Notes: generated by a model from the sequence alone, not told the origin. A DNA stretch of 64,000 nt from a bacterium (GCA_021802705.1 JAJZRL010000001.1:84379-148378), one strand, 5' to 3'. Counted from the stretch's first letter, positions 29,069 to 48,278 are shown. Made by a program: numbers and translations.

Positions 29069-31438
29069 CTATTTCACCGGCGTCGATGAGGCCGAGAGGA
29101 GATCTGCCGGAAACGGGTTCTTCCCCGCTTCAAGCATCGTTATCTGCGGAGCGACTATCTTCGCGTTATCGCTCGAGAGCGCCGCGATCGATTGCATCTG
29201 CGCAAGGGCGTCCTTGTAATCGCCCTGCTTTGCGTATACGGCCGCGAGAAAGTACCGCGCGTTCGCGAACTGCGGGTTCGCGGTAACCGCCGAGGAGAGC
29301 GCTTCGATCGCGCCGGAGAGATCGTTTTCCGCCGCGCTTAAGACGCCGACCTGGAAAAGAATGTTCGGATTATTGGGGATGAAGTACGCGGCGGCGAGCG
29401 CGGCGGCGAGCGCACCCTTCACGTTTCCGTCTTGCACCTCGAGCTGCGAAAGGAGGAAGATGGCAGACGTATAGTCCTGCTTGAGCGCTATGGCAGCCTT
29501 AAGGTCGCTTTCGGCGGACCTCGTGTCGCCGTTCGCGATATCGAGCTGCGCAAGGATGTAGAGGATTTGAGGATTCGTCGGATTAAGCTTCATCGCCTTT
29601 TCGTATGCGGTCTTTGCGCTTTCGTAAGCGCCCGAAACCTTCAACGGCACCGCCTGGGCGTAGAGATTCCCGAGAACGAGCCAGTTCCGATAGTCAGAAG
29701 GGTCAAGACGCGTAGCGGTGAGCGCCGCGTTGATACCCGAAGAAAGCGTCGCTTGAAACGCCTGTTGCGTAGCGGCTTTCGTCATGGTCGAAGAAGCCAC
29801 GATCTGCCCGAGACGCGCCACGGCGATGCCGGCGTCGATCTGGTATGCGGTGGCGCTCGGTGCGAATGACAGTGCGCTCTGTACGGCTCCGTCTGCCGCA
29901 TCGAGATTGCCCGCGGAGAAAGCGGCTGCCGCGCTTGCGAGATCCGCTTCGGCGACGTATCGCTCGACAAGCGTATAGGTAGCGACGACCGATGCGAGCA
30001 AGAGAAGCGTAAGCGCGAACACGATGATGAAGCCGAAACGAGGCGAGCGCGAGAAAACGATGGTCCGTTGCCCGCCATTAAGCGCAAAACGCATCGAAGA
30101 CGCGAATATTCCCGCAAAAACGAAAGCGAGCCCAAGGATGACGGCATTCGGCAGATCGAAGACAGCGGTCGTGAAGAGATAGAGCGTCGCGACAAACGAA
30201 AGTATCGCGACGGAGCGAGTGAAGACGTCCTGCGGCGCGTAGAGGATGAGTGTCCGAAGACCAAAAATGAGAAAGAGCGCGAAGAATATGATCCACGAGA
30301 GAGCGCCGATAAGACCGGTGGTCACGAATGACGTCGGGATGAAACCGATGCCGGACGAAAAATCGACATTCCAAAAAACGGTCGAATTGAGCGCCGCGTC
30401 ACGATACTTGAGCCACTCGACGCCGAAAGTCCCCGGGCCCGTCCCGAAAACCGGAGCGGTGGCGTACACCTTGTGCGCGACTGAAAATGTCGACTGCCAC
30501 GAGGGACGGACGGAGAGCGTGTTCATATGGAGCGCGTTCGCTAAGGCATTGCCGAGGTTCCCGCCAAGAAGGAAAAAGAGCGAGATCGCAAGTACCGAAA
30601 GCGGCAGAACGAGCGAATGCCCGTTCGCACCCGTCTCAAGAGGATTACCGCTTACAACGGCATCACTAAGATCGGCCTGCTCGGCTTCCGGCCCGCGATG
30701 CATCACTGCCTCGACAAAAAGACCGAGGGAAACGAGAGCGATCAATATCCACACGAGCATGGCATTCGTTATGGCGAGCAGGACAAGCATACCAGCGCCA
30801 AGCGCGACAAGCGTCCAGTATGTGCGCCGCGAAAGCTCGAGAGTCCGAAGCGTGATGAGAACGCTGATAATGCCCAATCCGAGCAAAAGCGCGAGGTCCT
30901 CGAGAGAACCAATGATAACGAACATCGGGGAGACAAGGTTCGGCGAGAACTGCCCGATCGTTATGGCAAGAGCTTCGATGACGACAACCGCAAGCGCAGT
31001 CCAAAAGCCGACATTGAGGAAAGAGCGGTATTGTTCCGGACCCCGCAGAATGAGCGCTGCGAGCGTCCCGAGGATAGTCGCGACCAGCATGAAACCGAGC
31101 GTATCCGGCTCAAGCGCATTTCCCCAGAGCGCACTCATAAACGGGATGCTTGAAAACGCCGCCGAAAGCATGTAGGCGCCGACAGGGAGCCAGAGCGCGC
31201 CGACAAGAAGAAGAGGAGGAAAAGAGACAGAATCTCGGGAAAGCCGTGCCAGGATGAAGAGTATCAGCGTGAGAAACGTACCCGCAGCAAGCAAGAAAAC
31301 CTTGGTCGCGACAAACGGAACCGACGCCGAAGGTACAAAGACGAAGAGAGCTGCGACGATAGTCGCGATAAAGAACCATGTACTTGCTTTTTCAAACGGT
31401 CGAGGATGGCGAGCGGCTGCGAGATGTTGTGGCGGCAT
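29069..31438 (-). CDS. O-antigen-ligase-like polytopic membrane protein with C-terminal TPR repeats
   Basis: An N-terminal ~450 aa with more than 10 TM helices (Wzy_C-like) is followed by a ~300-aa soluble region with repeated TPR-like motifs (AYEKAMKLNPTNPQILYILAQL..., AIALKQDYTSAIFLLSQL...). This architecture is common in CPR-like genomes. Confidence 0.7.
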   Translation of the reverse strand: MPPQHLAAARHPRPFEKASTWFFIATIVAALFVFVPSASVPFVATKVFLLAAGTFLTLILFILARLSRDSVSFPPLLLVGALWLPVGAYMLSAAFSSIPFMSALWGNALEPDTLGFMLVATILGTLAALILRGPEQYRSFLNVGFWTALAVVVIEALAITIGQFSPNLVSPMFVIIGSLEDLALLLGLGIISVLITLRTLELSRRTYWTLVALGAGMLVLLAITNAMLVWILIALVSLGLFVEAVMHRGPEAEQADLSDAVVSGNPLETGANGHSLVLPLSVLAISLFFLLGGNLGNALANALHMNTLSVRPSWQSTFSVAHKVYATAPVFGTGPGTFGVEWLKYRDAALNSTVFWNVDFSSGIGFIPTSFVTTGLIGALSWIIFFALFLIFGLRTLILYAPQDVFTRSVAILSFVATLYLFTTAVFDLPNAVILGLAFVFAGIFASSMRFALNGGQRTIVFSRSPRFGFIIVFALTLLLLASVVATYTLVERYVAEADLASAAAAFSAGNLDAADGAVQSALSFAPSATAYQIDAGIAVARLGQIVASSTMTKAATQQAFQATLSSGINAALTATRLDPSDYRNWLVLGNLYAQAVPLKVSGAYESAKTAYEKAMKLNPTNPQILYILAQLDIANGDTRSAESDLKAAIALKQDYTSAIFLLSQLEVQDGNVKGALAAALAAAYFIPNNPNILFQVGVLSAAENDLSGAIEALSSAVTANPQFANARYFLAAVYAKQGDYKDALAQMQSIAALSSDNAKIVAPQITMLEAGKNPFPADLLSASSTPVK

Positions 31439-31531
31439 GAGATAATCCTAAATTCTGAAGTGATAATGATTCAGTATACCCCATCCCTTCCCTGTCGAGA
31501 TGTCTCCATCAACAAGAATTCAGATTCGTGC

Positions 31532-31537
31532 TATAAT
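31532..31537 (+). promoter_or_regulatory. candidate -10 box (TATAAT) for rnpB
   Basis: A perfect TATAAT lies ~15 nt upstream of the predicted 5' end of the RNase P RNA. Confidence 0.4.
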
Positions 31538-31552
31538 AAAAAAACCGGGCTA

Positions 31553-31886
31553 GGCGATCGCTCCTTGAGAAATCAGGGGGAGGAAAGTCCGAACACGGCT
31601 CCGCGTAAAACGGAGAGAACGGTAGCGGGTAACGCCCGCACGCCGTGAGGCGCGAGGTGCGAACAGTGACGCCCGGAACGAAAGCGAAGGGCATCTCCGT
31701 CGACGAAAGAAGCCGGAGATGAATTCCCGAGGCGACTCGGGAGATGAAACGGCTAAATCCTTACCACCGTGCAAGGCCGTGTCCTGCTCGAACGGGCAGG
31801 AAGAGCCGCTCGAGGTCTTGAGCAATCAGGATCCCAGACACATGATCGTCCACGACAGAATTCGGCTTATCGGCCCGGTCGCTCAT
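31553..31886 (+). ncRNA. rnpB: RNase P RNA (bacterial type A-like)
   Basis: The P4 strands GGGAGGAAAGTCCGaaCacggCTCC and ACAGAAtTCGGCTTAT are present, together with GGGTAACGCC and a P1 pairing GCGATCG/CGGTCGC. The region has no credible protein-coding ORF. Confidence 0.85.
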
Positions 31887-31892
31887 ATACGA

Positions 31893-31918
31893 AAACCCGC
31901 GCAAAACGCGGGTTTTCG
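31893..31918. terminator. bidirectional intrinsic terminator between convergent rnpB and nrdJ
   Basis: aaaACCCGCGcaaaaCGCGGGTtttcg is a 7-bp GC stem with flanking A- and T-runs. Confidence 0.6.
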
Positions 31919-31955
31919 TTATCCGGACGATCTTCCAGGAAATCCGAAGGCTATC

Positions 31956-34343
31956 TCACATGATTTCGCACGTGCCGCCGGCGCAAGCGAGCTCTTTCTT
32001 CATCTCCGTCTCGTCCTGTCGTTCGTATGCGATAAGTTTCGCATAGTCTACCTTGGGAAAGCGGGCGATGAGTTTTTCATACTCTTCTTTCGTGATGGTC
32101 TCGTACGGAGCGAGGCGGTAAATATGATTTGTGCGCGGCAGGAAAGAGAGGCCGCCGATGATGTCCCAGTTCCTCTGAATCCAGTCAACGACGCCGATCC
32201 ACTCGTCCTCGCCGACCGAGATGGTCGCGGAAGGATTGTGCTCGGTGTAATTCAATTTCACCCGCTTCCAATATTCAAGTTGCTCGATCGCCGAAAGCGT
32301 ATCTTTGAACCGCGCTTCTCTCGAGTGATCGGGCGCTTTGACGGGAAATTCGAGCACATAGGTATTCGCCTCTTCCATCGATTGACCGACTTCCGGATGG
32401 AACGGAACGCCCTGGTCGCGCATCATCTTGAAAAGCGAGTCGGTCGCACTGATACGCACGCGACGGATATAGTACGGCGCGTGGCGCGGATGGATGCCCG
32501 AAGCGCAATCGAAGGTCTGTGAGACGGTACCCGAGGGCTTTACCGCGGTTATCGCCATCGACCGCTCGACGCCAAAACGTTTCGCATAGGCGATGTTCGT
32601 CTTTATCGCCACATCGCGCACCTTGCGCATGACCTCGGGCTTGCGGACCACAGGCGAATCCCACTGGCCGGTTATCGAGACGCCGAGAAGCCGTTCCGCA
32701 CGGTTGTGGTCGGACCAGTCCTGCGAGATGTAATTGAACTTCGTCAGCGTCGACTGGTAGGTTCCGATGATCGATGCGAGACGGGCCTTGCGCAGGAGCG
32801 ACGCCTCCGTGTCGTGCGACCGCGCGATGACCTCGGAAAGATTGCAGAACTGTTTGGACTGCAGGATAATCTCCGCGCAAGGGTTCGTACCGATAGGTCC
32901 GCGAACGACGCCATCTTCTCCTATGAATCCGACTTTCTTGAAATAGTCGATGCGGCGCTTCGGCAATGTTTCAGCGAGCGAGCCGCGGTTGAAGAGACCG
33001 CGTTCACCGGCGCCGCTCTTCATGAGCGCGACCCATTCATCCATCAGTTCCGTATTCGTCGGCCGCGTTTCGTAGACTGCGGAATTATTCGCTATCGAGC
33101 GGTGCGGATCGGTCATATAGAACTGCCCCTTCTTCGCATCGCGCATCTCGGCATCATCGAGATCGGAAAGCGATATCATCGCGGTGCGACGCACGCCCCC
33201 TGCGACGACGCACTCGCCTATCTTGCAGATGATGTCGTGCGCATCGATATTGCGGAGGCGGCGCCCTTGACGCGAAAGGACGCGTTCGCGCGTAAACGCG
33301 AGCAGGCTCTTAAGCGGCTCCGGCCCCGAAGCCTTGCCGCCCATCGTCTTAAGGCGCGCTCCCGCCGGACGTATCCTCGAGAAATCGAAGTCGATATCCT
33401 TCCCGGCGTACCAGGTCGTAAGACCGAGCGTAAGCGCGTCGCACCACCCTTCTTTCGAGTCGTCGATGATGTGGACCGGGAGCTTCTCTCTCGCTTGCTT
33501 CATGATCTGCGGGAGCTGTTCGATATTCTGGCTTTCCACTGAAAATCCGACGCCGCAACCCTGCATCGAGAGGTACATGATTTCGGCGAAATCTTCGAGT
33601 TTTGTCGGGGCGGTAAACGTGCAGTTGTAGGCGCAGGTATTGCATCGGCGCGCCGCTTCGCCGGAAAACTGCATGAGGCGCATCGAAGGCATGACTTCCT
33701 GCTTCAGGATACCCGTCCGAACCTCGGCGTACTCTTTCTCGGTGAGCTTCTTGCCGAGATTTTCGCGCATAAAGCCCATGTAGCGGTCGACGGTCTCTAC
33801 CCAGGTCTCCCGTCGGCCTTCTTCGGGTATCCATCGCGCATACGTGCGCAAGTAAACGAATTCCCCGAGAGCATTGCCTTCGAAATATCTCTTACTCTCT
33901 TCCGCGAGCTTGCGCACGTGCTCCGGTATCTCTACCTTTTGCGCGCGCAACTGAGCGCGCTTGTCGCGATAAAGGATGTACGCTTTCGCCGCCTTCACAT
34001 AATCGTTCAGGATGAGATACTTCTCCACCGAATCCTGTACGCCTTCGACAGTCGGAAGAAAACCCTTGTATTTCTTTGAAAAGCGCGCCAGCTCCCCGGC
34101 GACCTGATGCGCGACGAGCGCCGCATCGTCCTGTGTCCCCTCTTCCGCTGCGGCCATCGCTTTCCAGATGGCCGCGGAAATCTTATCGAAATCAAAGGAA
34201 ACCATCCGGCCGTCTCGTTTCTCTATCTGCGGGACCGTCTCGCGATACCGGAGCGTCTCTTTCGAAACAGGCTGTTTTGCCACTGCCGCTGTTTTTGGCT
34301 TCGATGTTTTCGTGCGAACGTGAACCTTTGCAGCTTTAGACAT
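31956..34343 (-). CDS. nrdJ: adenosylcobalamin-dependent ribonucleotide reductase (class II) with N-terminal ATP-cone
   Basis: An ATP-cone (RMVSFDFDKISAAIWKA) is followed by the class II core with an active-site loop ...GTNPCAEI... and a C-terminal redox Cys pair ...CAGGTCEIM. Confidence 0.9.
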   Translation of the reverse strand: MSKAAKVHVRTKTSKPKTAAVAKQPVSKETLRYRETVPQIEKRDGRMVSFDFDKISAAIWKAMAAAEEGTQDDAALVAHQVAGELARFSKKYKGFLPTVEGVQDSVEKYLILNDYVKAAKAYILYRDKRAQLRAQKVEIPEHVRKLAEESKRYFEGNALGEFVYLRTYARWIPEEGRRETWVETVDRYMGFMRENLGKKLTEKEYAEVRTGILKQEVMPSMRLMQFSGEAARRCNTCAYNCTFTAPTKLEDFAEIMYLSMQGCGVGFSVESQNIEQLPQIMKQAREKLPVHIIDDSKEGWCDALTLGLTTWYAGKDIDFDFSRIRPAGARLKTMGGKASGPEPLKSLLAFTRERVLSRQGRRLRNIDAHDIICKIGECVVAGGVRRTAMISLSDLDDAEMRDAKKGQFYMTDPHRSIANNSAVYETRPTNTELMDEWVALMKSGAGERGLFNRGSLAETLPKRRIDYFKKVGFIGEDGVVRGPIGTNPCAEIILQSKQFCNLSEVIARSHDTEASLLRKARLASIIGTYQSTLTKFNYISQDWSDHNRAERLLGVSITGQWDSPVVRKPEVMRKVRDVAIKTNIAYAKRFGVERSMAITAVKPSGTVSQTFDCASGIHPRHAPYYIRRVRISATDSLFKMMRDQGVPFHPEVGQSMEEANTYVLEFPVKAPDHSREARFKDTLSAIEQLEYWKRVKLNYTEHNPSATISVGEDEWIGVVDWIQRNWDIIGGLSFLPRTNHIYRLAPYETITKEEYEKLIARFPKVDYAKLIAYERQDETEMKKELACAGGTCEIM

Positions 34344-34464
34344 ACAAGATCAATTAACGGGTTGCTAATAATCAGGTACGCCTGACCTTTGCGAAAGAGA
34401 GGACGGGACGCATCATTGCCATTATCTTAACGCTCGTCTTCGGGAAAAGCCCTGTGGATAGAGT

Positions 34465-34938
34465 TCATTCGGAAACGCTCGGCCAATTTTGCAATATAAG
34501 CGGCGTGCCGGTCGCGATACCATGCCTCCGCGCAAATCCGGCGACGGTCTCAAGGACATAACGGGCCGGAGCCAACGGATAAAAGACATTCGGATACGTC
34601 GAGGGCTCGACATCCTCGGCGACCGAGATAACATGTCCTTTATCGTCGAGCCAGAACATGTCGAGAGGAACAAGGGTGTCTTTCATCCAGAAGCCATAAT
34701 AATCGTCTTTCGGAAAGACAAAGAGCATACCGTAGTTATCCGGAATACTCTTCCGGCCGCCAAGACCCTTTTCTCTTGCTATGGTTGTGGTCGCAAATTC
34801 TACCTTCAAGGACACTCCGCCAAAATTTCCGGTAACAAACGATGAGGAGGGTACAGGTGATATTGTCCGATAACTGAAAAGGACCGCCAAGAACGCCAAG
34901 ACGACTATGGCGGCAGGAAAGAGATACCGACGATACAT
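34465..34938 (-). CDS. DUF192 domain protein
   Basis: ...REKGLGGRKSIPDNYGMLFVFPKDDYYGFWMKDTLVPLDMFWLDDKGHV... matches the DUF192 core. An N-terminal signal-anchor is present. Confidence 0.75.
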   Translation of the reverse strand: MYRRYLFPAAIVVLAFLAVLFSYRTISPVPSSSFVTGNFGGVSLKVEFATTTIAREKGLGGRKSIPDNYGMLFVFPKDDYYGFWMKDTLVPLDMFWLDDKGHVISVAEDVEPSTYPNVFYPLAPARYVLETVAGFARRHGIATGTPLILQNWPSVSE

Positions 34939-35011: not shown

Positions 35012-35731
35012 TTACCGTCGTGGAACCGACAAGTCGCGGAATACCGACGCCGAAATGGTCGAGCTTGCTACCGGACCCCAGACACGAACCTTATCGCCGT
35101 TCTGTGCCGTGCTGAAGTCAAGCGACAGCCAGTTCCTCTGGAGCGTCTTTGCGCCCGAGGCGAGCGAAACAGAGTAACTCGCGCCCTTCTCCGTCGTGAG
35201 CGTAAACGTGTTTGACGCGGTATCAAGGCCGCTTACCGTACCCTGGATAACCCTCGATGTTCCCGCTCCCGCTCGGACATCTCCGCGCACTGACTGGATA
35301 TTCTGCTTCGCTTCCTGATGCGCCGCTTTCCGTTCCGTCCAGTCCCGGACGAGTTCCGCGCTGACGGTCCAGCTTGAGCTCTGGTCTACCGTTCCCTCGA
35401 TCCCGACGAAATCGCCTTGCTGGAAATTCGAGAGCGAGACCCCGTTCGGAAGTATCTTCGAAGTTGTAGGGACATTTACCGTCCAGATCCCGCCCCAACC
35501 TTTGACCGTGAGCGAATCAGCCGAGACCGACTCTATCGTGCCGCGCAAAAGAACCTTTCCGCGCGGACCGATCTCAAGCACCATCGGCTGCGCGTGCGGC
35601 GTACTCGATGCTGTCGTGAGCGGCACCGGATCGTGGGTGATGATCATCTGTTGAGGTGCTTGCGCGAACGCGACTCCCGCCGTACCGAGGAATCCGGCGA
35701 TTCCTGCTGTTGCCAATGCTTTTTTTATCAT
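35012..35731 (-). CDS. hypothetical secreted protein
   Basis: A signal peptide (MIKKALATAGIAGFLGTAGVAFA) starts at the internal Met; the ORF track extends to 35779. The mature part is Thr/Ser-rich and looks beta-rich. Confidence 0.55.
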   Translation of the reverse strand: MIKKALATAGIAGFLGTAGVAFAQAPQQMIITHDPVPLTTASSTPHAQPMVLEIGPRGKVLLRGTIESVSADSLTVKGWGGIWTVNVPTTSKILPNGVSLSNFQQGDFVGIEGTVDQSSSWTVSAELVRDWTERKAAHQEAKQNIQSVRGDVRAGAGTSRVIQGTVSGLDTASNTFTLTTEKGASYSVSLASGAKTLQRNWLSLDFSTAQNGDKVRVWGPVASSTISASVFRDLSVPRR

Positions 35732-35862
35732 GATATTAAAGATTAAAGATAATAAATCGCTTACATCTGCCGGCGTCATGCGCCACAGAGACGCTACGCA
35801 TAGTATATACGTACGCCATCGGATTTGTTTTCAAATGCCGGATGCGCCTCACGAAGCAAGAA

Positions 35863-36888: not shown

Positions 36889-38691
36889 ATGAAAACCACG
36901 CATATTCCCGGGCACTTCGGCGGGGCTTTCCGCAGCACCATGGCCTTTTTCCGGAATCACCGCACCGTAAGCATCGTCGCTGCGGGACTCCTCCTTTACG
37001 GCCTCTGGCAGGCGTACGCAGCCATTGCTACTCCTTCGACAGCGACACGGTATGTCACGACAACGGTCGCCACCGGAACCGTAGTCGCGACCATGACCGA
37101 AAGCGGACAGGTATCGGCGAGCGCAAACGTGAACATACCGTCCCAGTCCTCCGGCGAAGTCCTCTCGGTTCCGGTCGTCGCTGGAGAGCATGTCGCATCC
37201 GGAGCCGTTCTCGCCTACCTCGATCCGACGAACGCCGAGCAAAGCGTGGCGGACGCTAAGCTGGCGCTCCAGTCGGCGCAATTAGCGCTTGATCAGCTTC
37301 TCGAACCTGCGGCGACTTCGACAATCACAAACGCGCAGAACGCGGTCGCGACCGCACAAGCGAATCTTGCCGATACGCACACGAGCGGATATAACGATGT
37401 CGCTTCCGCCTTCCTCGATCTTCCGAATATCGTGAACGGTATCGATACCATCCTCCACGGATATGCGGTTCCGGGACGCACGAGCCAGCAAAACGAAAAC
37501 GCTTATAGCGACATGGTCCAATCCTACGATCCCGCGATCGTTCAATATAGAGTCGCCGCGGAAAACTCTTTTTCCGCGGCGCAAACGGCGTACACGGCCG
37601 CGCTTGCCGCATATAATGCCACACCGCGGAATACGTCTGATGCACAGATCGAAGCACTCGTGAAGCAGGCCTACGCCGCTGCCGCCGATACGTCAGACGC
37701 CCTCAAGGCCGCAACGAACTTCCTGAATACCGCGGATACGGCGCTTACGAACGCAAACCTCACCATCCCAACCATTCTTTCAAACCAGATCTCTCTCCTT
37801 ACGGCTTATACCGGAACGACAAACAGCCATGTCTCCTCCCTTTCAGGGGATGTGTTCGGCGTTGCGAATGATGAACGGGCGCTCGCGGCGGCTCAAGCGT
37901 CGCTCGCTGAGCTGCAGGCGGGCGCCGATCCGCTTGCCATCCAGTCTTCAGAGCTCTCCGTACAGGAAAAGCAGGATGCGCTTACGCAGGCTGAACAGAC
38001 GCTTGCCGATACGGTCGTACGGGCGCCTTTCTCCGGCACCGTCGCCGCGGTCAATATCGAGCAATACCAGACCATCGGCAATGGCGTTCCGGTCGCAACG
38101 ATGGTAAGCGATAACCAGAGCGTTGACATGTCCGTCAACGAAGTTGATGCTGCGAAGCTTAAGGTCGGACAAAAAGCGACGCTCACGTTTGACGCGCTCC
38201 CGAACGTTTCCGTCGCCGGAACGGTCTCTTCGGTCAATACGATCGGGTCTGTCTCATCCGGCGTCGTATCATACGACGCTGTCGTGACGTTCGATACGCC
38301 CAATAACAAGGTGCTTCCCGGCATGAGCGCGACGGTTACCATCATCACCGGATCGCAAACCGGACTTGTCGTTCCGGCGAGCGCTATAAAAACCGCCGGG
38401 ACAACGCAGTACGTCGAAGTCTTCGACCCGCCGCTCTCTCTGAGCGAGAACCCGTCCGGCGTACCGGCTCCGATGCCTCCGAAAAACGTGACCGTGACGA
38501 CCGGAATTTCCGATGACACGAATGTCATCATAGAAAGCGGCCTTCAAGCAGGGACTCAGGTAGTGGCACAGACAATCGCGGGTGCGGGTGCCGCTCTTCC
38601 GACGAGCGCCGCACAGAGCACATCGGCTTTCAAGAACGGCGCGAAACCGGGTATCGGCCAGGGAGCTCTTATGAGAACGTTCGGGCGCTGA
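36889..38691 (+). CDS. efflux ABC-transporter periplasmic adaptor (HlyD/MacA-type membrane fusion protein)
   Basis: A signal-anchor is followed by a long coiled-coil hairpin (…AKLALQSAQLALDQ…AQASLAELQAG…), then lipoyl-like and beta-barrel domains (…ADTVVRAPFSGTVAAVN…GMSATVTII…). The start is taken at MKTTH (36889) and is uncertain. Confidence 0.7.
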   Translation: MKTTHIPGHFGGAFRSTMAFFRNHRTVSIVAAGLLLYGLWQAYAAIATPSTATRYVTTTVATGTVVATMTESGQVSASANVNIPSQSSGEVLSVPVVAGEHVASGAVLAYLDPTNAEQSVADAKLALQSAQLALDQLLEPAATSTITNAQNAVATAQANLADTHTSGYNDVASAFLDLPNIVNGIDTILHGYAVPGRTSQQNENAYSDMVQSYDPAIVQYRVAAENSFSAAQTAYTAALAAYNATPRNTSDAQIEALVKQAYAAAADTSDALKAATNFLNTADTALTNANLTIPTILSNQISLLTAYTGTTNSHVSSLSGDVFGVANDERALAAAQASLAELQAGADPLAIQSSELSVQEKQDALTQAEQTLADTVVRAPFSGTVAAVNIEQYQTIGNGVPVATMVSDNQSVDMSVNEVDAAKLKVGQKATLTFDALPNVSVAGTVSSVNTIGSVSSGVVSYDAVVTFDTPNNKVLPGMSATVTIITGSQTGLVVPASAIKTAGTTQYVEVFDPPLSLSENPSGVPAPMPPKNVTVTTGISDDTNVIIESGLQAGTQVVAQTIAGAGAALPTSAAQSTSAFKNGAKPGIGQGALMRTFGR

Positions 38692-38698
38692 TATCTCA

Positions 38699-39421
38699 AT
38701 GATCGAATTAAGAGATATCGTCAAGACATACGGTTTCGGCAGCGAAACCTACACGGCGCTGCGCGGCATCACGTTCTCCATCAACAAAGGAGAGTTCGTC
38801 GCCATCATGGGCCCTTCCGGTTCGGGAAAATCGACCCTCATGCATATCCTCGGCTGTCTCGATACCCCGACGTCGGGCTCTTATGTGCTCGAGAAGAACG
38901 ATGTATCCGCCATGACCGACGACGAGCTTGCGGAAATCCGCAGGGAAAAAATTGGCTTCGTGTTTCAATCGTTCAACCTGCTTCCCCGCACGAGCGTCTT
39001 GCGCAACGTCATCCTTCCGCTCGTATACGCGGAAGTCGAGCCGAGTGAACGTGAGGAACGCGCGAAGAAGGCACTGTATGCCGCCGGGCTCGACGAAGAG
39101 CATTTCGGACACCTTTCAAATCAGATTTCAGGCGGCCAGGTGCAGCGCGTCGCCATCGCCCGCGCGCTCGTGAACGATCCTTCGCTCATCCTTGCCGATG
39201 AGCCGACCGGCAATCTCGACAGCAGGACAAGCCTTGTCGTGCTCGGTACGCTGCAGGAGCTCAACCGGACGCACAACCGCACGATCGTCCTCATCACTCA
39301 CGAACCCGACATCGCCGAACACGCAAGACGCATCATCCGCCTCAAGGACGGTCTTGTCGTTTCCGACGAGAAGAATACGGCGGTACGGGACGCGACGAAC
39401 GAAAGCAGCATCTACCCATGA
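38699..39421 (+). CDS. ABC transporter ATP-binding protein (MacB/LolD-type)
   Basis: Walker [10 protein letters not shown], the ABC signature [15 protein letters not shown], Walker [13 protein letters not shown] and an H-loop are present. Confidence 0.9.
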
Positions 39422-40653
39422 CGACGAGCGACATCATAGAGGAAACCCGCATCGCGCTCTCGGCAAACAAGGTGCGCTCCGGTCTCACGGTACTCGGCAT
39501 CGTTATCGGCATAGCTTCGGTCATCGCGCTTGTCGCCGTCGGCCAAGGCGCGCAGAACTCCGTGCAGGCGTCCATAGAATCTATCGGATCGAACCTGATC
39601 GTCGTCATGCCGGGAGCTGCGCGGCAGTTCGGCTTCGGCGCTTCTGAGGGCCGCGGGACCGCGCGCTCGCTCACAAACGGGGACGTTGCGGCCATTTCCG
39701 GCGTAGCGAATGTCGCCGCGGTGTCCGGAGAATATGACAGGAATTACCAGGTCTCGGTAGCCGGAGCGAATACGAACACGTCGGTTGACGGCGTAAGCGC
39801 GAGCTACCAATCGATCCGCAACATCCAGATGGATGCAGGCTCGTTCATTACCGACACCCAGTCCCGATCGCTCGCGAGAGTCGCCGTCATAGGCCCGACA
39901 GTCGTTACCGACCTTTTCGGCGATACCGCGACCGCACAAAACGCGATAGGACAACGCGTCCGTATCGGCGACCTGCTCTTCACGGTTATCGGCGTAACGG
40001 AACCCAAGGGAGGCTCCGGATTCGGCAACCAGGATGACACGGTTTATGTCCCGCTCGGAACCGCCCTCCAGTATTTCGCCGGAAACGGCAATCAGTACCT
40101 TTCGGTAATCGACATACAAGCGGCAAGCCAGGCGGCGATGACGCAGGTGCAGAATGACGTGACCGCCCTCCTGCTCGCGCGGCATGGCATCAGCGACCCC
40201 GCGAAAGCGGATTTCAGCATCCTCAATCAAGCGGACATCGTCTCGGCAGCATCGAGCGTTACCTCCACGTTCACGATCTTGCTGGCCGCCATCGCAGGCA
40301 TCTCGCTTGTCGTCGGCGGGATCGGGATCATGAACATGATGCTCACGACCGTTACCGAACGTATGCGTGAGATCGGATTACGGAAAGCGATCGGCGCGAC
40401 CCGTAAAGACATCAACGTGCAATTCATCAGCGAGGCTATCGCTCTGACCTTTCTCGGAGGCGGCGCCGGCATCGTGCTCGGATGGATGATATCCTACGTC
40501 GTCACGCTGACCGGCCTCGTAAAGGCTCAGGTAACGATTTCCTCGGTATTGCTCGCCTTCGGAGTCTCGACCGCTATCGGCGTCGTATTCGGGTGGTACC
40601 CGGCACGCCGCGCGGCAAACCTAAACCCCATAGACGCGCTCCGCTATGAATGA
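39418..40653 (+). CDS. ABC transporter permease (MacB/FtsX-type) with large extracytoplasmic domain
   Basis: N-terminal TM helix, a ~220-aa extracytoplasmic domain, then three C-terminal TM helices of the FtsX fold (…SLVVGGIGIMNMMLTTVTERMREIGLRKAIGA…). The start overlaps the ATPase stop. Confidence 0.85.
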   Translation: MTTSDIIEETRIALSANKVRSGLTVLGIVIGIASVIALVAVGQGAQNSVQASIESIGSNLIVVMPGAARQFGFGASEGRGTARSLTNGDVAAISGVANVAAVSGEYDRNYQVSVAGANTNTSVDGVSASYQSIRNIQMDAGSFITDTQSRSLARVAVIGPTVVTDLFGDTATAQNAIGQRVRIGDLLFTVIGVTEPKGGSGFGNQDDTVYVPLGTALQYFAGNGNQYLSVIDIQAASQAAMTQVQNDVTALLLARHGISDPAKADFSILNQADIVSAASSVTSTFTILLAAIAGISLVVGGIGIMNMMLTTVTERMREIGLRKAIGATRKDINVQFISEAIALTFLGGGAGIVLGWMISYVVTLTGLVKAQVTISSVLLAFGVSTAIGVVFGWYPARRAANLNPIDALRYE

Positions 40654-40707
40654 CGCGGGTGGCGAAACGCGTATTACTTACCAAAACCACCAATACACCT
40701 ATCGCCT

Positions 40708-41124
40708 ATGCGAAATATCACGGCTCCCGGGATTATTGCGATTATCGCGGCGCTCATCATCGGCTTCGGCGCCGGCTACTATATCCCGCACGGAACACAT
40801 GCCGCGAAGAGTCAGACGCGCAAGGACATGCGGCTCGCGCAGGGGACGAACCAGGCATCGAAGGAATTTCTCTCCGGTACCGTCGCGAAAGAAGACAGCG
40901 AAAGCATAACGGTGGATACCCGGGACGGGAACTCTCACGTGGTGCTCATAACGCCGGCTACCGTCGTCGATAAAAGCGTTACCGGAACGACGAGCGACAT
41001 ATCGCTCGGTTCCGACGTTCTCGTTTCCGGCGCAACCAACGGCGACGGGTCTGTTTCCGCTTCGCTCATCCAGCTTCGGCCGGCGGGTGTCCGAGGTATT
41101 CCAAACGGAACCAACCACCGGTAG
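40708..41124 (+). CDS. membrane-anchored DUF5666-like beta-rich protein
   Basis: An N-terminal TM helix is followed by an alternating pattern (…ITVDTRDGNSHVVLITPATVVDKS…GSDVLVSGATNGDGSVSASLIQL) reminiscent of DUF5666 domains. Confidence 0.5.
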   Translation: MRNITAPGIIAIIAALIIGFGAGYYIPHGTHAAKSQTRKDMRLAQGTNQASKEFLSGTVAKEDSESITVDTRDGNSHVVLITPATVVDKSVTGTTSDISLGSDVLVSGATNGDGSVSASLIQLRPAGVRGIPNGTNHR

Positions 41125-41131
41125 GAGAACG

Positions 41132-42655
41132 ATGTGGCTTCCGCTGCACACGCGCCGATACGTGCGCTATAGTGAAGCCATGGACGAAAATCAGGGTTCT
41201 CCCAAAGAAGAACGCGCGAATGCGTTCAAAACGCTCATAGGCAAAGTATATTTCCACCGCGTTCCTTCATACGGCAATACGATATTTTACTCGCTCGGTT
41301 TCCTGGCGCTCACTTGTCTCACGGTGCTTGTCGTGACCGGTATCACGCTCGCGTTCATGGGACAAACGTGGTGGCTGACGAACCCGTGGGGCATCTATGT
41401 CCGGAGCGTCCACTTGTGGACCGTCCAGGCTTTCATCATCGTTCTTCTTGCGCATATCCTCGTCGGATTCATGACGAGCGGCTTCCGGCCGCCGCGCAGG
41501 ATGGTGTGGGTCTTCGGCGCGACGATCTTCTGCCTGGTGCTCATTCAGACAGAGTTCGGCTATGGTTTGCGCGGCGACTTCTCTTCGCAGTACCGCGCGG
41601 TCTCCGGCGCGGATTTCTGGAATGGCGCGCATCTCGGGTACTGGCTCAATCCGCTCAATTACACGCAGGCCTTCGCGCTCCATGTCGCCATCATCCCCTT
41701 CGCGATATTCGCCTTGTTTATCGCGCACTACCTGCTCGAACACACCTACGGCATCGCGCGGCCGTACCGTAAGGATGTCCCGTATACGATGGTCGCCGCG
41801 AACCATCGTATCCTTTTCCTTCGCGGCGGAGTCCTTGTCGCGCTCATTCTGGCGCTTGCCGCGCTCTTCCACTCCCCCTATGTCGCGCCGGTGCGTATCG
41901 CGGACGTCGCACGGAAAGACCCGGGCCTCATGATGACGACGCTCCTCGCAGAATTCGACCGGACATCGGACACGGCAACCTATTTCGACTCTATCGACCC
42001 ATACACGTTCGATACGCGGCAGGTCTATATAACCGCGCCGTACGAACAATACATCCTGGACAACGGGAATCAGGATGCGTGGGCGGCATTCGAAAACGAG
42101 CCGGCTGATCTGCAGCAGGCTGACTTGCAGCAGGCCGAAGCGTACGCCAACGCGACCGACACGAGCGCTTTTGCAAGCAGCACGAACCCCGTCATCGTGA
42201 TGCTGAACACGCTTGTGCCGATGGCTCAAGGCGGATTGTATGAGTCGCTCCTGAACCAGGAAAACCCGACCGCAAACAACACCTACGTGCTGCGTTTCCT
42301 TGACGATACGGGCGCGCTCCATGCGAAAGCGGCCTCGCTCGACATGAGCACCGCCGAATGGGGTATGGCCAAAGACGAGACGGGGAGCGTCTTTAAGCTC
42401 CCGCCGGGGTCGTGGTGGCTCCTCCCTCTCGGTATGATCAACAGCGCGTTCGGTCTCCTGAGCAATCCGTACGGCGACCGCGATGCGGCGGTCATACTCG
42501 GGCTTATCATGCTCCTGTTTGTCGCCTTCCCTTACATACCGTATGTAAACCGCCTGCCGAAGCTCTTGCATCTCGCGCCATTCATCTGGGGACGCACGCA
42601 AGGGAAGCGTCCGCGCCAAGCCGAGCCTGAAAACGAACGAGCTGATACCGCCTAG
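41132..42655 (+). CDS. cytochrome b / b6-like di-haem membrane protein with long C-terminal extension
   Basis: The SD sequence AGGAGA lies 4 nt before the ATG at 41132, overlapping the upstream stop. The N-terminal half aligns to the cyt b N-terminal domain pattern (…NIFYSLGFLALTCLTVLVVTGITLAF…). Two His pairs are spaced ~14 apart in helices (VHLWTVQAFIIVLLAH and LHVAIIPFAIFALFIAH). The large antisense ORF 41267..42619 is an R/E/D-rich shadow. Confidence 0.6.
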   Translation: MWLPLHTRRYVRYSEAMDENQGSPKEERANAFKTLIGKVYFHRVPSYGNTIFYSLGFLALTCLTVLVVTGITLAFMGQTWWLTNPWGIYVRSVHLWTVQAFIIVLLAHILVGFMTSGFRPPRRMVWVFGATIFCLVLIQTEFGYGLRGDFSSQYRAVSGADFWNGAHLGYWLNPLNYTQAFALHVAIIPFAIFALFIAHYLLEHTYGIARPYRKDVPYTMVAANHRILFLRGGVLVALILALAALFHSPYVAPVRIADVARKDPGLMMTTLLAEFDRTSDTATYFDSIDPYTFDTRQVYITAPYEQYILDNGNQDAWAAFENEPADLQQADLQQAEAYANATDTSAFASSTNPVIVMLNTLVPMAQGGLYESLLNQENPTANNTYVLRFLDDTGALHAKAASLDMSTAEWGMAKDETGSVFKLPPGSWWLLPLGMINSAFGLLSNPYGDRDAAVILGLIMLLFVAFPYIPYVNRLPKLLHLAPFIWGRTQGKRPRQAEPENERADTA

Positions 42656-43821
42656 CTTTCGCGAAGCGAGGGAGCCGAAACCGATACGGCGCGATTGCCG
42701 AGCTGTATGGAGCTGTTCTCCCGCAAGAAAGCGACGACGGTCATGAGGTTCGCGCGCTCGCTCGGATTCTGTACCGCCTCGGTCCGGTCGGTCCCGTCCG
42801 GATACAGCCGCTCGATCTCGTCACGCACCCACACGCTCGTGATGCCCGTGTCGACGATGCCGCGCGCGGCATGATGGATAAGCGTCACCATCGCCTCGAG
42901 GGCGGTCGCGGACGGCTTGTATCCGCGCGCGGCCCTCATCGCCTGCTCCACGTCGGCGAGGTGGAGTATCTCTGCGACATCGATGCTCACGCCAAGACCT
43001 CCTACGGTAACGGGAGTCTCGACAGGAAGGTTTTGGTAATTGTGATGGCGCGCGGCGAGCTTGCTCTCTTCCGGAAAACCGAGCGACGCCAATATGGATG
43101 CGGAATATGCCTCATGCGGCCGGATGAGTTCCGCAAGCGTCTGGTTTACATCTATGCCCTGCCCGCTCAAGGCACGGACCGATTCCTGCGAAAGGAGGAG
43201 CGCTGCCGGCGCCACATCCTTGGGACGGTACCCTGTAGCGGCGAGCTCCTCGATAAGCGTTTCCGGATCGGATGCCGGAGAGGCGCTGCTTCGCGTAAGG
43301 GCCGCGTGGACGAACGGATCGTCCCGATGCAAATTCAAAAGATACGCGCACTCGCGGTCGTCCACCGTATTCGCTATAAGCTCGTACGGGACATCCACTT
43401 TCCCGATGTCGTGCAGCAGGCAAGCGCGATAAAAGATAGGGAGCGTGATGTGTTCCTCGCCGAAGAGCTCCGCGAAACGCACGTCGCTGCCGAGAAGCGG
43501 GCGCTCGACCTTTCCGCGCGCGATGCGGTATGTTTCGGCGCAGTGGTCGGCAGTTTCCGGATGGAAAAGCTCGATAACGGTAAAGGCTTCCCACACTTCC
43601 TCCGTCATGAACGGACCCGCATCAAAAAGCTGTTTTTCATACGCCGCTTTTACCCGGGCGACCTCCCTTTCGAGCAGGTGCTGCTCGCGCAAGGCGCGGA
43701 GCGCATATCCAAAACCCGCCTGTCTTGCGATTTCCCGCGCCCGGAGAGTAGGGTCTTCCTCGCGCGCAACCTCGCTCTCTAAGTGCCTCCCTTCGCCTAT
43801 CGTATGACTAAAATGGCGCAT
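42652..43821 (-). CDS. HD-domain phosphohydrolase
   Basis: An HD motif (…CLLHDIGKVDVP…) is present with additional His/Asp residues. No GYP motif was seen. Confidence 0.65.
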   Translation of the reverse strand: MRHFSHTIGEGRHLESEVAREEDPTLRAREIARQAGFGYALRALREQHLLEREVARVKAAYEKQLFDAGPFMTEEVWEAFTVIELFHPETADHCAETYRIARGKVERPLLGSDVRFAELFGEEHITLPIFYRACLLHDIGKVDVPYELIANTVDDRECAYLLNLHRDDPFVHAALTRSSASPASDPETLIEELAATGYRPKDVAPAALLLSQESVRALSGQGIDVNQTLAELIRPHEAYSASILASLGFPEESKLAARHHNYQNLPVETPVTVGGLGVSIDVAEILHLADVEQAMRAARGYKPSATALEAMVTLIHHAARGIVDTGITSVWVRDEIERLYPDGTDRTEAVQNPSERANLMTVVAFLRENSSIQLGNRAVSVSAPSLRES

Positions 43822-45310: not shown

Positions 45311-45531
45311 GTTGCAAAATATAGGTTTCGGCATACTGCCGATAAAAAGTCCTAAGGGCGGTGAGGGTCGGTTGCGAACTTTACCCTTTCAAGCAGTGTA
45401 AGGCTTTTTGAGCGACTTTGGAACTAGCCAAAACTAGGGGGAACGGTCGGAGTCTGATTTTCACAAATGAGACTAATGAGACGTTTTAAGGCGTTTTCTG
45501 GTGTCTCATTCTCAAGAGTCCCCTTAGACTA

Positions 45532-46032
45532 TTACACTAAGGACTGCTTACGACTTCGTAGGTACCTGTACTCATGCCAGGTAAGCCATATCACCGCTAT
45601 GTCTAGGATGGTTATCAGTAATAGCCAAGGAGAATGCGTAAAACTGAATCGATAGAGCTGATATGCAATGAACAACCCGAAGACCACTATGGCTGTGGGA
45701 TAGTACCAGAGTTTCTTTCGAAGAAGGCCAACAATGAGGAACATTTTTATAACCCCATGACTCAACAGGAAAAGCGCAGCAAAGTGTTGCGAACTTATCG
45801 AGAAATTCTGTGCCGAGTGAAGCAAGTAATTAGCGATAAAGTCTCTGGGGTCTTGCAGGAGCTCGTGCTGGGTCAGAGCAAGTACGAGGTTTAATAGAAA
45901 TTGCTGGCTGATGAAATATATCAAGACACCGCCGATAATTTCAAACAGCGCAATAACGGCTTTGGCAATGAGACTCAGCTCAAATACCAAGTGGATGTTT
46001 TTCTCTTCAAATAGTTTCTTTAGGCCAGACAT
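45532..46032 (-). CDS. DUF2127-like polytopic membrane protein
   Basis: Four hydrophobic helices are present and the coding sequence is low in G+C. Confidence 0.5.
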   Translation of the reverse strand: MSGLKKLFEEKNIHLVFELSLIAKAVIALFEIIGGVLIYFISQQFLLNLVLALTQHELLQDPRDFIANYLLHSAQNFSISSQHFAALFLLSHGVIKMFLIVGLLRKKLWYYPTAIVVFGLFIAYQLYRFSFTHSPWLLLITILDIAVIWLTWHEYRYLRSRKQSLV

Positions 46033-46474
46033 TTTTTATTAAAAAGTAGATGACCGAAGTTGCCAGAATTGAGATAGCCATACTCCCCGCGACGTCGATG
46101 GGATGGTGGAGCCCAACGTACACCCGAGCCGCTGCGACAGTGAGTGCTAACACCCATAATACTATTCCCAACTTGCGGTTTAGATAGATTCCAATTGCTG
46201 CAACTGCTGATACAAGGAGTGCGTGGTCAGATGGAAAACCGTTATCGGGAGTATGCGGTATGAGCGGAGTAAAATTGCCGACTACAAACGGTCGCGTATC
46301 AAAATAGATATAACCACCAAGTAACGCAAGCAGGTAGATGAACGCCAGAGATGGCAGCGCAAAGACCAGTATCCTCTTTTGCACTGATCGCGGTTGGGAC
46401 AGAAAGTAGACACCCAGAACAAGGATAGGTATGACGAAAAGATATTTTGCAGAAAGGATAAAGAAAAGATCCAT
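46007..46474 (-). CDS. PAP2-family phosphatase (membrane-bound)
   Basis: The PAP2 motifs ...GFPSDHA... and ...RVYVGLHHPIDV... are embedded in TM helices. Confidence 0.8.
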   Translation of the reverse strand: MDLFFILSAKYLFVIPILVLGVYFLSQPRSVQKRILVFALPSLAFIYLLALLGGYIYFDTRPFVVGNFTPLIPHTPDNGFPSDHALLVSAVAAIGIYLNRKLGIVLWVLALTVAAARVYVGLHHPIDVAGSMAISILATSVIYFLIKNVWPKETI

Positions 46475-46922
46475 TCAGATCATTTTAGCAAAAAAGTGAC
46501 TTTATTTCAGAGAGGTTGGCCAAAGAGCAGGCCCCAAAGATTGATAAGAAATAACAAGCATTGACAAGAGGACGGACGTATTGGGTTATCCACAGCCCCT
46601 CAGACCGGGCCAGTGACAAATAATTGCGGATCCGGGATAATTACTGGCAAGTAAGCAACAGGTACCTGTCCTCCGGTTCGGAGCCGTGAGCAAGGGTGGG
46701 AAGCGCGATCGCGTTGCTGAACGCAAGAGAAAAAACAAACCAAGGTAGCCATCACACGCTCTGTGACCTACCACATTACTGGCTAATTTTCTCGTTGGCG
46801 ATCTCTACACGCTCCACCCTAGGAGCACCCTAAATTATTCGTCCTCTAATAAGGTGCGTTTAGCGTTACTTGCAGCAAGCAAGTGTGCAAAACGTACCTA
46901 CCCACAAAAGTGGTTCTTAACC

Positions 46923-48278
46923 ATGAAAAAAGAAAAAATTACAGATCTAGAAGTAGACTACGTTCCCATTACTAATCTCAAGCCCTGCGAGTACAACCCA
47001 CGCAAGTGGAGCAGTGAATCACGCAAGGGATTAACAGAAAGCATCGACGAGTTCGGCTTCGTGCAGCCGCTCGTTGTTAATGCCGCCCCAAAGCGCAAAG
47101 GCGTTGTAATTGGCGGAAACTTCAAGCTTGACATCGCCAAGAAGAAAGGCATGGCAACCGTGCCGGTCGTGTGGGTCAACATCCCCGATCTCGAGCGCGA
47201 AAAATCCTTGAATCTCAGATTAAATAAGGCGCAGGGAGAATTTGACTTCGAACTACTGGCCACCTTCGATGAGAATTTCCTCAAAGACGTAGGATTCTCT
47301 TCCGAGGAGCTCGACAATATCTTCGAGGCCGACGAGACGCCCGAGCAATTCGATCTCGTCAAAGAACTCGCCAAGCTTGATATCACCAACGTCGAGATCA
47401 AAAAGGGCGACGTGTATGAATGGCCCGACGGCTCGCGATTGGCCTGCGGCGATAGTACGGTCGCTGAAGACATGAAGTCACTCATGGGCGACGCGAAAGC
47501 AGACATGTGCTTCACGGACCCACCTTACCGACTGGATTACTTGAAAGGCAAAAAGAAAAACGGCAAACCGGTTGAGGGTTTCGGTGCCAAGCGCGACCGC
47601 AAGTACCTTGAGACCGACGTGCTACCGGAGAATTTCACTGAGCTCTGGATGGGCACTGTTGCCGCAGCCGCTAAAGATGACTTCCACATCATCGTGTACG
47701 AGAACTGGAAGAACCTTCGCGAGATTTGGGGCGAGATGGAGAAGCACTGGAAGGTCAAAAACATGCTGGTGTGGCACCTCCCGAACCGTACGCAAGGCTT
47801 TTCCGCCAAGTACAAGTTTTTCTCCAAGCATGACATCGCGATGGTAGGTTCTTCTCCTAAAGCGCGCGGTATGAATCTCAAGTCGGAAGCAGAGTTGCTC
47901 CAAAACGAATATGAAACTGCGCTGTATGCCATCCAAGGCAAACCGCACTGGGAGGGATACAAGAAGGGTCGCAAGTACCAGCCGACCGATTTCATCGAGT
48001 ATGTTGCGTCCGATGCAAAATCATCCGGGCAGGGCGTAGTGTTTGGTACTAAGCCGATCGAGATACTGATCCCGTACGTGAAAGTCCTCACCAAGCGCGG
48101 CGACCTCATCCTTGAGCCCTTCGGGGGCAGCGGCTCGAGCGGCGCTGCTGCGATCACCATGAAGCGCCGCTGCTACACCATGGAGAAGGTGCCTACGTAT
48201 GCGGAGATCATCCGTCGCCGCTGGTCGAGGTTACTGGGACAGAAGCCGAAGAAAATACATGAAAGAAAATCAGCGTAA
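46923..48278 (+). CDS. ParB-like nuclease domain fused to a DNA N6-adenine/N4-cytosine methyltransferase
   Basis: An N-terminal ParB/Srx-like domain (…PITNLKPCEYNPRKWS…FGFVQPLVVN…) is fused to a methyltransferase with a DPPY motif (CFTDPPYRLDY) and a C-terminal AdoMet motif (EPFGGSGSSGAAA). The start was moved to MKKEK at 46923. Confidence 0.8.
   Translation: MKKEKITDLEVDYVPITNLKPCEYNPRKWSSESRKGLTESIDEFGFVQPLVVNAAPKRKGVVIGGNFKLDIAKKKGMATVPVVWVNIPDLEREKSLNLRLNKAQGEFDFELLATFDENFLKDVGFSSEELDNIFEADETPEQFDLVKELAKLDITNVEIKKGDVYEWPDGSRLACGDSTVAEDMKSLMGDAKADMCFTDPPYRLDYLKGKKKNGKPVEGFGAKRDRKYLETDVLPENFTELWMGTVAAAAKDDFHIIVYENWKNLREIWGEMEKHWKVKNMLVWHLPNRTQGFSAKYKFFSKHDIAMVGSSPKARGMNLKSEAELLQNEYETALYAIQGKPHWEGYKKGRKYQPTDFIEYVASDAKSSGQGVVFGTKPIEILIPYVKVLTKRGDLILEPFGGSGSSGAAAITMKRRCYTMEKVPTYAEIIRRRWSRLLGQKPKKIHERKSA

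Follow-up and report, generated by a model that had tools for sequence, protein, structure and literature searches.

A 64,000-nt stretch of bacterial DNA (GCA_021802705.1 JAJZRL010000001.1:84379-148378, hereafter the window, with positions counted from its first letter) was analyzed around a run of five co-directional open reading frames (ORFs). Their products are an adaptor, an ATP-binding cassette (ABC) ATPase, a MacB-type permease, a small membrane-anchored DUF5666-like protein and a cytochrome b-family protein (Table 1). The window also carries genes for FtsA, FtsZ, a thioredoxin reductase (TrxR), tRNA synthetases, TsaD, LepA, MurJ, a class II ribonucleotide reductase (RNR) and the RNase P RNA, a gene context typical of the candidate phyla radiation (CPR, or Patescibacteria), and the best homologs bear the labels Paceibacterota, Kaiserbacteria and Adlerbacteria. 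An initial annotation had presented the five genes as one cluster coupling an exporter to a cytochrome. The evidence presented here makes it very likely that they are two functionally independent units, juxtaposed by rearrangement in this species of Paceibacteria (CPR): a pump module of four genes whose order recurs at other loci, and a cytochrome gene that elsewhere stands apart from it.

The physical layout given in the initial annotation was reproduced, with five tightly packed or overlapping ORFs on the plus strand at the same coordinates. Successive genes are spaced by 7, -4, 54 and 7 bp, the permease and ATPase genes overlapping by 4 bp. At 41122-24, the TAG that ends the DUF5666 gene shares bases with an AGGAGA hexamer resembling a Shine-Dalgarno (SD) sequence, so that this hexamer indeed begins inside the preceding stop, as had been described.

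Table 1. Coordinates of the five genes and of adjoining features in the window
Feature	Coordinates	Strand	Description
Adaptor gene	36889-38691	+	ORF, 600 aa
ABC ATPase gene	38699-39421	+	ORF
MacB-type permease gene	39418-40653	+	ORF
Small anchored DUF5666-like protein gene	40708-41124	+	ORF
Cytochrome b-family gene	41132-42655	+	ORF; 507 aa, or 491 aa from ATG 41180
AGGAGA SD-like hexamer	41123-41128	+	Read from sequence; 3 nt 5' of ATG 41132
Tandem ADLQQ-ADLQQ-A coding repeat	42104-42136	+	Cytochrome residues 325-335
HD-domain protein gene, convergent	42652-43821	-	Weak HD domain match

The pump module and its anchored fourth component

The adaptor matches the profile TIGR01730 RND_mfp at 128 bits (cutoff 94.9) and also HlyD_3, HlyD_D23 and Biotin_lipoyl_2, and its matches in the PDB include MacA (E=2e-11) and EmrA. 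It consists of an N-terminal transmembrane (TM) anchor, a long coiled-coil hairpin, and lipoyl and beta-barrel domains, and BSH_YknX, Beta-barrel_YknX and YknX_C are the Pfam families found in its orthologs at related loci; it is a membrane-fusion protein (MFP) of the periplasmic-adaptor type, similar to YknX and MacA. The ATPase is an ABC subunit like YknY, LolD and the nucleotide-binding domain of MacB, matching ABC_tran at 115 bits and the N-terminal half of MacB (NF007826) at 241 bits, with intact Walker A (GPSGSGKS), signature (ISGGQ), Walker B (LILADEP) and H-loop (ITHE) motifs. The permease matches MacB_PCD (151 bits, residues 21-250) and FtsX (79 bits, residues 291-404) and, in the PDB, MacB (2.4e-58, residues 13-409), Spr0695 of Streptococcus pneumoniae (5xu1, 5e-36) and the YknZ ectodomain (2e-6). 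It is of the MacB type (type VII ABC): a large extracytoplasmic core domain separates TM1 from TM2, and an FtsX domain forms the C-terminal part. The first three genes encode a genuine ABC exporter of the MacB type together with its membrane-fusion adaptor, in agreement with the initial annotation.

The product of the fourth gene scores 22.6 bits (E=1.4e-4) against Pfam DUF5666 (PF18914), short of the gathering threshold of 27, and a precomputed PF18914 match is present in about 40% of its homologs among the matches listed. An alignment of 36 sequences of this family contains 21 invariant columns. The protein is laid out as an N-terminal TM helix, a low-complexity linker and a single conserved beta-domain of about 70 residues; its predicted structure has a helix at 6-22 and a six-stranded barrel, and a fold search with this model returned only weak, generic OB-fold matches (E ~5e-3). 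No published account of DUF5666 function was found in the literature.

Gene order around the small protein was analyzed at 80 metagenome loci and 2 genome loci taken from a DUF5666 profile search, with upstream counts made on the 64 loci that have at least 600 bp of upstream DNA and downstream counts on the 57 that have at least 1 kb downstream. A co-directional MacB permease gene lies directly 5' of the DUF5666 gene, within a distance threshold of 400 bp, in 60 of the 64, usually with ATPase and adaptor genes ahead of it. At L072, L077 and L080 the permease lies just past the threshold, and at L085, the last of the four exceptions, no permease was found 5' of the DUF5666 gene. A cytochrome b homolog 3' of the DUF5666 gene was found at none of the 57 loci. 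The conserved unit therefore observed comprises four genes, encoding the adaptor, the ATPase, the permease and the TM-anchored DUF5666 protein, and the grouping of the anchored protein with the pump in the initial annotation holds directly 3' of a MacB permease gene in at least 60 of the 64 loci.

Additional genes accompany the module in relatives. A homolog of extracytoplasmic function (ECF) sigma factors is encoded upstream of it, in the same direction, at 19 of 30 evaluable related loci, often joined by an anti-sigma-like membrane protein, and the gene for an extra anchored protein of 154 aa is found upstream at 14 of the 30. Such additions upstream of the pump were noted at L036 (1785-3276) and 19 other metagenome loci, e.g. 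L046, L060, L061, L064, L099 and L109. The 154-aa protein resembles DUF5666 in part only (hhalign E=7.7e-5, probability 62%, 35 columns); in the relatives that have it, it would place DUF5666-type proteins on both flanks of the pump. The window lacks the ECF sigma, anti-sigma-like and 154-aa protein genes of the relatives. Upstream of its adaptor gene stand instead a divergent polysaccharide deacetylase gene and then the gene for a larger DUF5666 protein. This second DUF5666-type protein (35012-35779, minus strand, 255 aa) has an N-terminal hydrophobic segment, a sub-cutoff DUF5666 score of 24.9 bits and, by eye, a second repeat near its C-terminus. Its gene is divergent and lies beyond that of the deacetylase, and its adjacency to the module is not kept in other loci.

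YknWXYZ of Bacillus subtilis and B. amyloliquefaciens is a four-component MacB-type efflux system of the sigma-W regulon (PMC4887032, PMC3498285). It shares with the window the adaptor-ATPase-permease order, in a monoderm-type organism; the YknX-specific Pfam families are found in the orthologs of the window adaptor, the YknZ ectodomain is matched by the permease, and each of the two sets has a fourth small membrane protein. The control of the Bacillus yknWXYZ genes by an ECF sigma factor (sigma-W, PMC3498285) finds a parallel in the ECF sigma gene upstream of 19 of the 30 module loci, although no sigma gene adjoins the module in the window. The fourth components differ, being a TM-anchored, single-pass DUF5666/OB-like barrel encoded after the permease in the window and YknW, encoded before the adaptor, in Bacillus. 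YknW is a polytopic membrane protein of the Yip1 family. No YknW-like gene occurs upstream of the window adaptor, where the divergent polysaccharide deacetylase gene is found instead.

The same permease fold class is seen in Spr0693-0694-0695 of S. pneumoniae and in MacAB-TolC of Escherichia coli (PMC5768738, PMC5985334). ATPase and permease are fused in E. coli MacB, whereas they are encoded by separate genes in the window; the window adaptor is about 230 residues longer than MacA, and the conserved DUF5666 gene is additional to the Spr0693-0695 and MacAB-TolC sets. CPR bacteria are regarded as having no outer membrane, and a TolC-type duct is not expected. Gram-positive MacAB-like pumps operate without a duct of this kind (PMC5768738). 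The pump with its conserved DUF5666 accessory is a variant of the MacAB/YknXYZ-like type and, by homology, the unit formed by the four genes (36889-41124) would work like YknXYZ and Spr0693-0695: ATP hydrolysis in the cytoplasmic ATPase would drive mechanotransmission via the extracytoplasmic domain of the permease, and substrates would be driven out at the outer membrane face by way of an adaptor-built channel. The SDP toxin is handled by YknWXYZ; for the window pump, homology suggests antimicrobial peptides, amphiphilic toxins or lipid-like molecules as likely substrates. The DUF5666 protein would be a module-specific accessory tethered on the outer face, and the ECF sigma gene upstream of the module in many relatives points to a role in envelope stress.

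The cytochrome b-family protein

The protein encoded by the last gene scores above the Pfam cutoffs for Cytochrom_B_N_2 (PF13631, 44.7 bits) and Cytochrome_B (PF00033, 37 bits), and its best PDB match is cytochrome b6, with E=1.2e-10 when the single sequence was the query and 1.5e-21 with the family profile. Residues H94, H108, H184 and H199 align with the haem ligands of b6 and do not vary across 47 homologs that are 50-79% identical. H94 and H108 fall within a predicted helix at 85-114, and H184 and H199 within another at 177-206, with the b6-type spacing H-x13-H in helix B and H-x14-H in helix D. The AlphaFold model of the protein (predicted local distance difference test score 80.6) found its best Foldseek matches in cytochrome b of bc1/bcc complexes (E=7e-8). 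The di-haem cytochrome-b-like identity assigned to this gene in the initial annotation is borne out by the Pfam matches and by the number, invariance and spacing of the ligand histidines, and the gene is predicted to encode a true, di-haem relative of cytochrome b.

Six TM helices, with the N- and the C-terminus on the inner side, were indicated by hydropathy, the AlphaFold model and loop charges. Helices A-E are the counterpart of cytochrome b, with a four-helix di-haem core and helix E. Helix E is followed by an acidic, mostly helical ectodomain (residues ~246-427, 25 D/E versus 9 K/R), an interfacial helix (428-439), a TM helix (447-473) and a basic cytoplasmic tail, and no Pfam family matches the C-terminal 290 residues of the protein. 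The long acidic C-terminal extension of the initial annotation is thus acidic, as had been stated, but it is a conserved ectodomain, after which come a sixth TM helix and a basic tail, rather than a tail itself. Likewise, the QQADLQQA repeat noted there is present (as ADLQQADLQQA), but it lies inside a variable insert that is missing in many homologs, e.g. P0043, P0056, P0060, P0074 and P0079.

The similarity to cytochrome b6 and QcrB includes the four-helix bundle, the histidine spacing, the RS.H, PR and GI..P motifs, and helix E. By contrast, the ectodomain of about 180 residues, without a Pfam family and inserted after helix E, is absent from b6 and QcrB, and a single TM helix comes after helix E, compared with three (F-H) in cytochrome b and two (F-G) in subunit IV. 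Cytochromes of the b6f, bc1 and bcc complexes have a Rieske protein and a cytochrome c or f as partners, whereas no such family was listed for the genes flanking members of the window family. Several motifs differ as well. An invariant motif, EFGYGLRGDFSSQ.RA..GADFWNG, stands where the cd-loop of cytochrome b has PW(G/D)Q, and LPWDQ of b6 aligns with LRGDF of the window protein. The haem-cn cysteine is replaced (FYSLGF versus FYCLGG in b6), with G56 and F57 invariant. No PEWY motif was found in the protein, and Pfam Cytochrom_B_C gave no match at E<=10 on five C-terminal halves. The conserved PPGSWWLLP...GD...FPYIPY.NR was considered as an equivalent of PEWY and helix F of cytochrome b or subunit IV and set aside: the likeness is by eye only, a PDB profile search with the C-terminal module returned no cytochrome b or PetD, and hhalign of two family alignments against an approximate bovine cytochrome b sequence aligned the N-terminal part only. 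PG.WW as a possible counterpart of PEWY was kept as a lead only.

A search of 1.84 billion representatives with the C-terminal half of the protein yielded only 54 proteins. Among them are fused forms in Ktedonobacteraceae, 550-640 aa long, and separate proteins of about 330 aa, which comprise no more than helix E, the ectodomain and the final TM helix and look like a split form of the cytochrome gene in other bacteria. Signatures common to the family are TS(D/E)TATY and PG.WW...(N)GD...P(F/Y).P. The family is widespread in Paceibacteria (CPR). In the tree of Dibrova et al. 2017, a heterogeneous 'subfamily G' of cytochromes b includes a 'Patescibacteria group', Ca. Saccharibacteria and Ktedonobacteria (PMC5600118). 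Patescibacteria and Ktedonobacteria are also the two phyla in which the window family occurs, and the leaves of the tree may belong to this family; that paper gives no description of an ectodomain, an orphan context or a function for the subfamily (PMC5600118). No functional study of the CPR orphan cytochrome was found in the literature, where nothing beyond its listing in a phylogeny came to light.

In Ktedonobacteraceae, the gene for the fused homolog follows a conserved ORF of about 70 aa with a single TM segment, the stop of which overlaps the cytochrome start (L117 5783-6004, L118 5798-6004), and a segment similar to it is apparently fused at the N-terminus of P0270. This ORF may be a small subunit of the cytochrome family outside CPR. 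An equivalent small conserved partner upstream of the CPR cytochromes was sought and discarded, the small ORFs found there being unrelated or spurious.

The second unit of the region (41132 or 41180 to 42655) is a stand-alone di-haem cytochrome b, whose b6-like core would pass electrons across the membrane between two bis-His haems. Transfer between its donor and acceptor would be Rieske-independent and would employ scavenged haem.

Gene neighborhoods and the origin of the adjacency

Neighborhoods of the cytochrome gene were scanned with one genome per species, giving 29 loci at which identity in the best aligned segment is 37-76%. At none of them was the window adaptor, permease or DUF5666 protein represented by an ortholog near the cytochrome gene. 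Clustering of all neighboring ORFs recovered the cytochrome at 29/29 loci and the next commonest family at 6/29, and at many of the loci the gene is flanked on both sides by genes of the opposite strand. In a Pfam census of two genes per side (85 proteins, 28 loci) no family occurred in more than two loci, and Rieske, cytochrome c, MacB_PCD, FtsX and HlyD were not among the 25 families listed; the Rieske result covers flanking genes, and partners may be encoded elsewhere in the genome. Neither the 577-kb contig L030 nor the Ktedonobacteria loci L117 and L118 have an orthologous pump module, a Rieske protein or a cytochrome c beside the cytochrome. The order of five genes was found only on contigs with a 100%-identical DUF5666 protein, which are taken to be the same species sampled in several metagenomes.

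These observations bear directly on the proposal of the initial annotation that the five genes are one system, with the exporter coupled to the cytochrome so as to serve in haem- or quinone-linked export, in extracellular electron transfer or in a redox-gated form of secretion; insertion of haem or quinone was considered along with it. The co-directional genes, their tight spacing, the SD sequence over the stop codon and the lack of a predicted terminator are in its favor, and some Gram-positive MacB-type ABC systems, e.g. HrtBA, handle haem. However, HrtBA has no adaptor protein, synteny indicates a recent juxtaposition (see below), and the module is absent beside the cytochrome in 29/29 genomes, as is a cytochrome b after the module in 57/57 loci. 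With the arrangement confined to presumed same-species contigs, conservation of the cluster elsewhere was not observed, an outcome that the initial annotation itself had named as refuting the idea, and neither the functional pairing nor any of the activities suggested for it is supported by the neighborhoods. A single system is, in our judgment, very improbable.

Some neighbors of the cytochrome were considered as redox partners and rejected. VKOR, DoxX and a 174-aa CxC membrane protein were evaluated as recurrent neighbors, and occur at 2, 2 and 4 of the 29 loci, respectively, and not in the window. VKOR (L025 5351-5899, L028 11429-12034) and DoxX (L009 8850-9356, L013 2379-2861) are the sole recurrent quinone- or thiol-redox membrane proteins encoded next to the cytochrome, too rare for an association though of use as a lead. 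The HD-domain protein was dismissed as a partner as well, its adjacency being kept only in L001 and L002, the closest relatives of the window.

CPR bacteria are generally held to lack respiratory or electron transport chains (PMC7507113, PMC11665869), and the cytochrome gene could be viewed as a decaying or non-haem relic, without redox function in a host devoid of such a chain. The absence of Rieske, cytochrome c and oxidase genes near the cytochrome at any locus of the Pfam census would fit this, as would the missing Qo-site and haem-cn motifs. Nevertheless, the ORF is intact, and an identity of 50-79% over 47 homologs, with the four histidine ligands and many core residues invariant, is a conservation pattern indicative of strong purifying selection; the full-length architecture is moreover kept in Ktedonobacteria, and the split form in other bacteria. 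That the gene is a relic seems hardly credible.

The origin of the adjacency was addressed by comparison with L001 and L002, whose cytochromes are 76-78% identical to that of the window. Upstream of the cytochrome, these relatives have genes, among them those for FtsZ and a flavoprotein like thioredoxin reductase, whose orthologs in the window occupy 3981-10628, about 30 kb from the window cytochrome. Since the upstream genes of the relatives correspond to window genes located so far away, the adjacency of pump and cytochrome is a lineage-specific rearrangement. The sole neighbor common to the window and the two relatives is the convergent HD-domain gene, which is 74-75% identical and absent at other loci. 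Its stop overlaps that of the cytochrome gene by 4 bp (42652-42655), tail-to-tail, and likewise in L001 and L002, which leaves no space for a terminator between the two genes.

Comparison of the start regions added to this. Most homologs begin at the position of Met17 (ATG 41180), 55 bp past the preceding stop, and DNA homology with L001 and L002 starts near 41160-41170, about 20 nt 5' of that ATG. The AGGAGA-ATG 41132 start, which is the one chosen by the gene callers on record, falls in the non-homologous junction, so that the feature interpreted as co-translation in the initial annotation is itself a product of the rearrangement, the junction being specific to the lineage. Translation from ATG 41132 may add a lineage-specific extension of 16 residues. 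The SD-like AAGGTGA of L001 and L002 reads ATAGTGA in the window, and a promoter-like TGCACA-17-TATAGT ends 6 nt 5' of ATG 41180, with regional hits at chance level (2 found, 2.5 expected).

A new in-frame start with a strong SD sequence exactly at the junction, the degradation of the ancestral SD-like sequence and the choice of ATG 41132 by gene callers are what would be expected of a lineage-specific neo-operon, in which the cytochrome gene had come under the pump promoter and translational coupling via the new start tied its expression to envelope stress, without physical coupling of the proteins. On the other hand, the promoter-like sequence before ATG 41180, albeit one of a class of chance-level hits, would permit independent and possibly leaderless expression. 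A neo-operon of this kind is considered improbable.

Several points weigh against a reading as two independent units. No terminator-like site was predicted on the plus strand between 40653 and 41132, and the gap of 7 or 55 bp, the strong SD sequence and this lack of a terminator are compatible with co-transcription; a newly formed operon could, furthermore, have gained a function. The sampled neighborhoods come from metagenome-assembled genomes and metagenome contigs, many of them short, and at one locus (L019) an ABC/MFP cluster adjoins the cytochrome gene. The L019 cluster was rejected as a precedent for a pairing of MacAB with the cytochrome: it is convergent, has an MFP-permease-ATPase (DevBCA-like) order, and its permease went undetected with the window permease as query. 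All considered, we hold to two functionally independent units as the very likely explanation; the five genes may well be co-transcribed in this species, but only incidentally. Domain content, conservation of the haem ligands and the presence or absence of conserved neighbors are shown by the data, whereas the substrate of the pump, the part played by its accessory, and the electron donor and acceptor of the cytochrome are inferred.

Two further observations concern rearrangements near the cytochrome gene. A block encoding DUF192, a TPR protein, MurJ and LepA lies a few kb from the cytochrome gene both in the window (25575-34938) and in L030 (13079-20619), whose cytochrome is 64% identical, in a relative orientation opposite to that of the window; only in the window are the RNR gene and the pump module interposed between block and cytochrome. 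An older synteny may thus link the cytochrome to the DUF192-LepA block rather than to the TrxR block of L001 and L002. In addition, the metagenome-assembled contig of L032 (GCA_021840485.1 JAKBYM010000042.1, locus 3638-4583) is 100% identical to window 38104-41740 and then diverges fully in the middle of the cytochrome gene, yielding a truncated cytochrome of 217 aa followed by an EamA gene. L032 is either a chimeric assembly or a strain-level rearrangement within the gene.

Other window features and implications

Downstream of the region, at 45500-62300, the G+C content of the window falls from ~0.58 to ~0.48, across a block with the appearance of an acquired island of metal-resistance or mobile type. 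Its genes encode a DUF2127 protein, a ParB_N-N6_N4 methylase fusion (46854-48278), a flavoprotein similar to MerA and dihydrolipoamide dehydrogenase (51380-52783), a pair of P-type ATPases (54129-56351, the one with an HMA domain, and 56379-58289) and an unusual protein (59214-60953) that fuses HMA, DsbD_2 and cupredoxin parts. Within this block, a match to the Rfam LOOT RNA (51124-51257, minus strand; 77 bits versus a gathering score of 46) lies between the gene for the MerA-like protein and an unannotated ORF of 197 aa.

For the cytochrome, a more far-reaching proposal can be made, which we advance as speculative and rather unlikely as it stands: that the orphan protein founds an undescribed class of Rieske-independent transmembrane electron carriers, combining a b6-like di-haem core with an acidic ectodomain marked by TS(D/E)TATY and PG.WW. 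In CPR episymbionts such a carrier, equipped with scavenged haem and perhaps with quinone obtained likewise, would shuttle electrons between an extracellular partner and the cytoplasm or membrane. Possible roles under this proposal would be the reoxidation of quinol from disulfide-forming enzymes of the VKOR/DsbA type, or electron exchange with the surface of the host cell.

An exporter wired to a b-type cytochrome would, if true, be a new kind of system; the evidence says that the arrangement is an accident of gene order, and coupling of pump and cytochrome should stay out of annotations and hypotheses. Each of the two units is of interest in its own right. The Paceibacteria pump with its tethered DUF5666 protein, often accompanied by an ECF sigma factor, provides a testable context for DUF5666 in the envelope defence of ultrasmall episymbionts. 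A conserved di-haem cytochrome with an outward-facing domain, in bacteria thought to be without respiratory chains, poses the question of where their haem and electrons come from, and this cytochrome family is the part of the region most worth following up.

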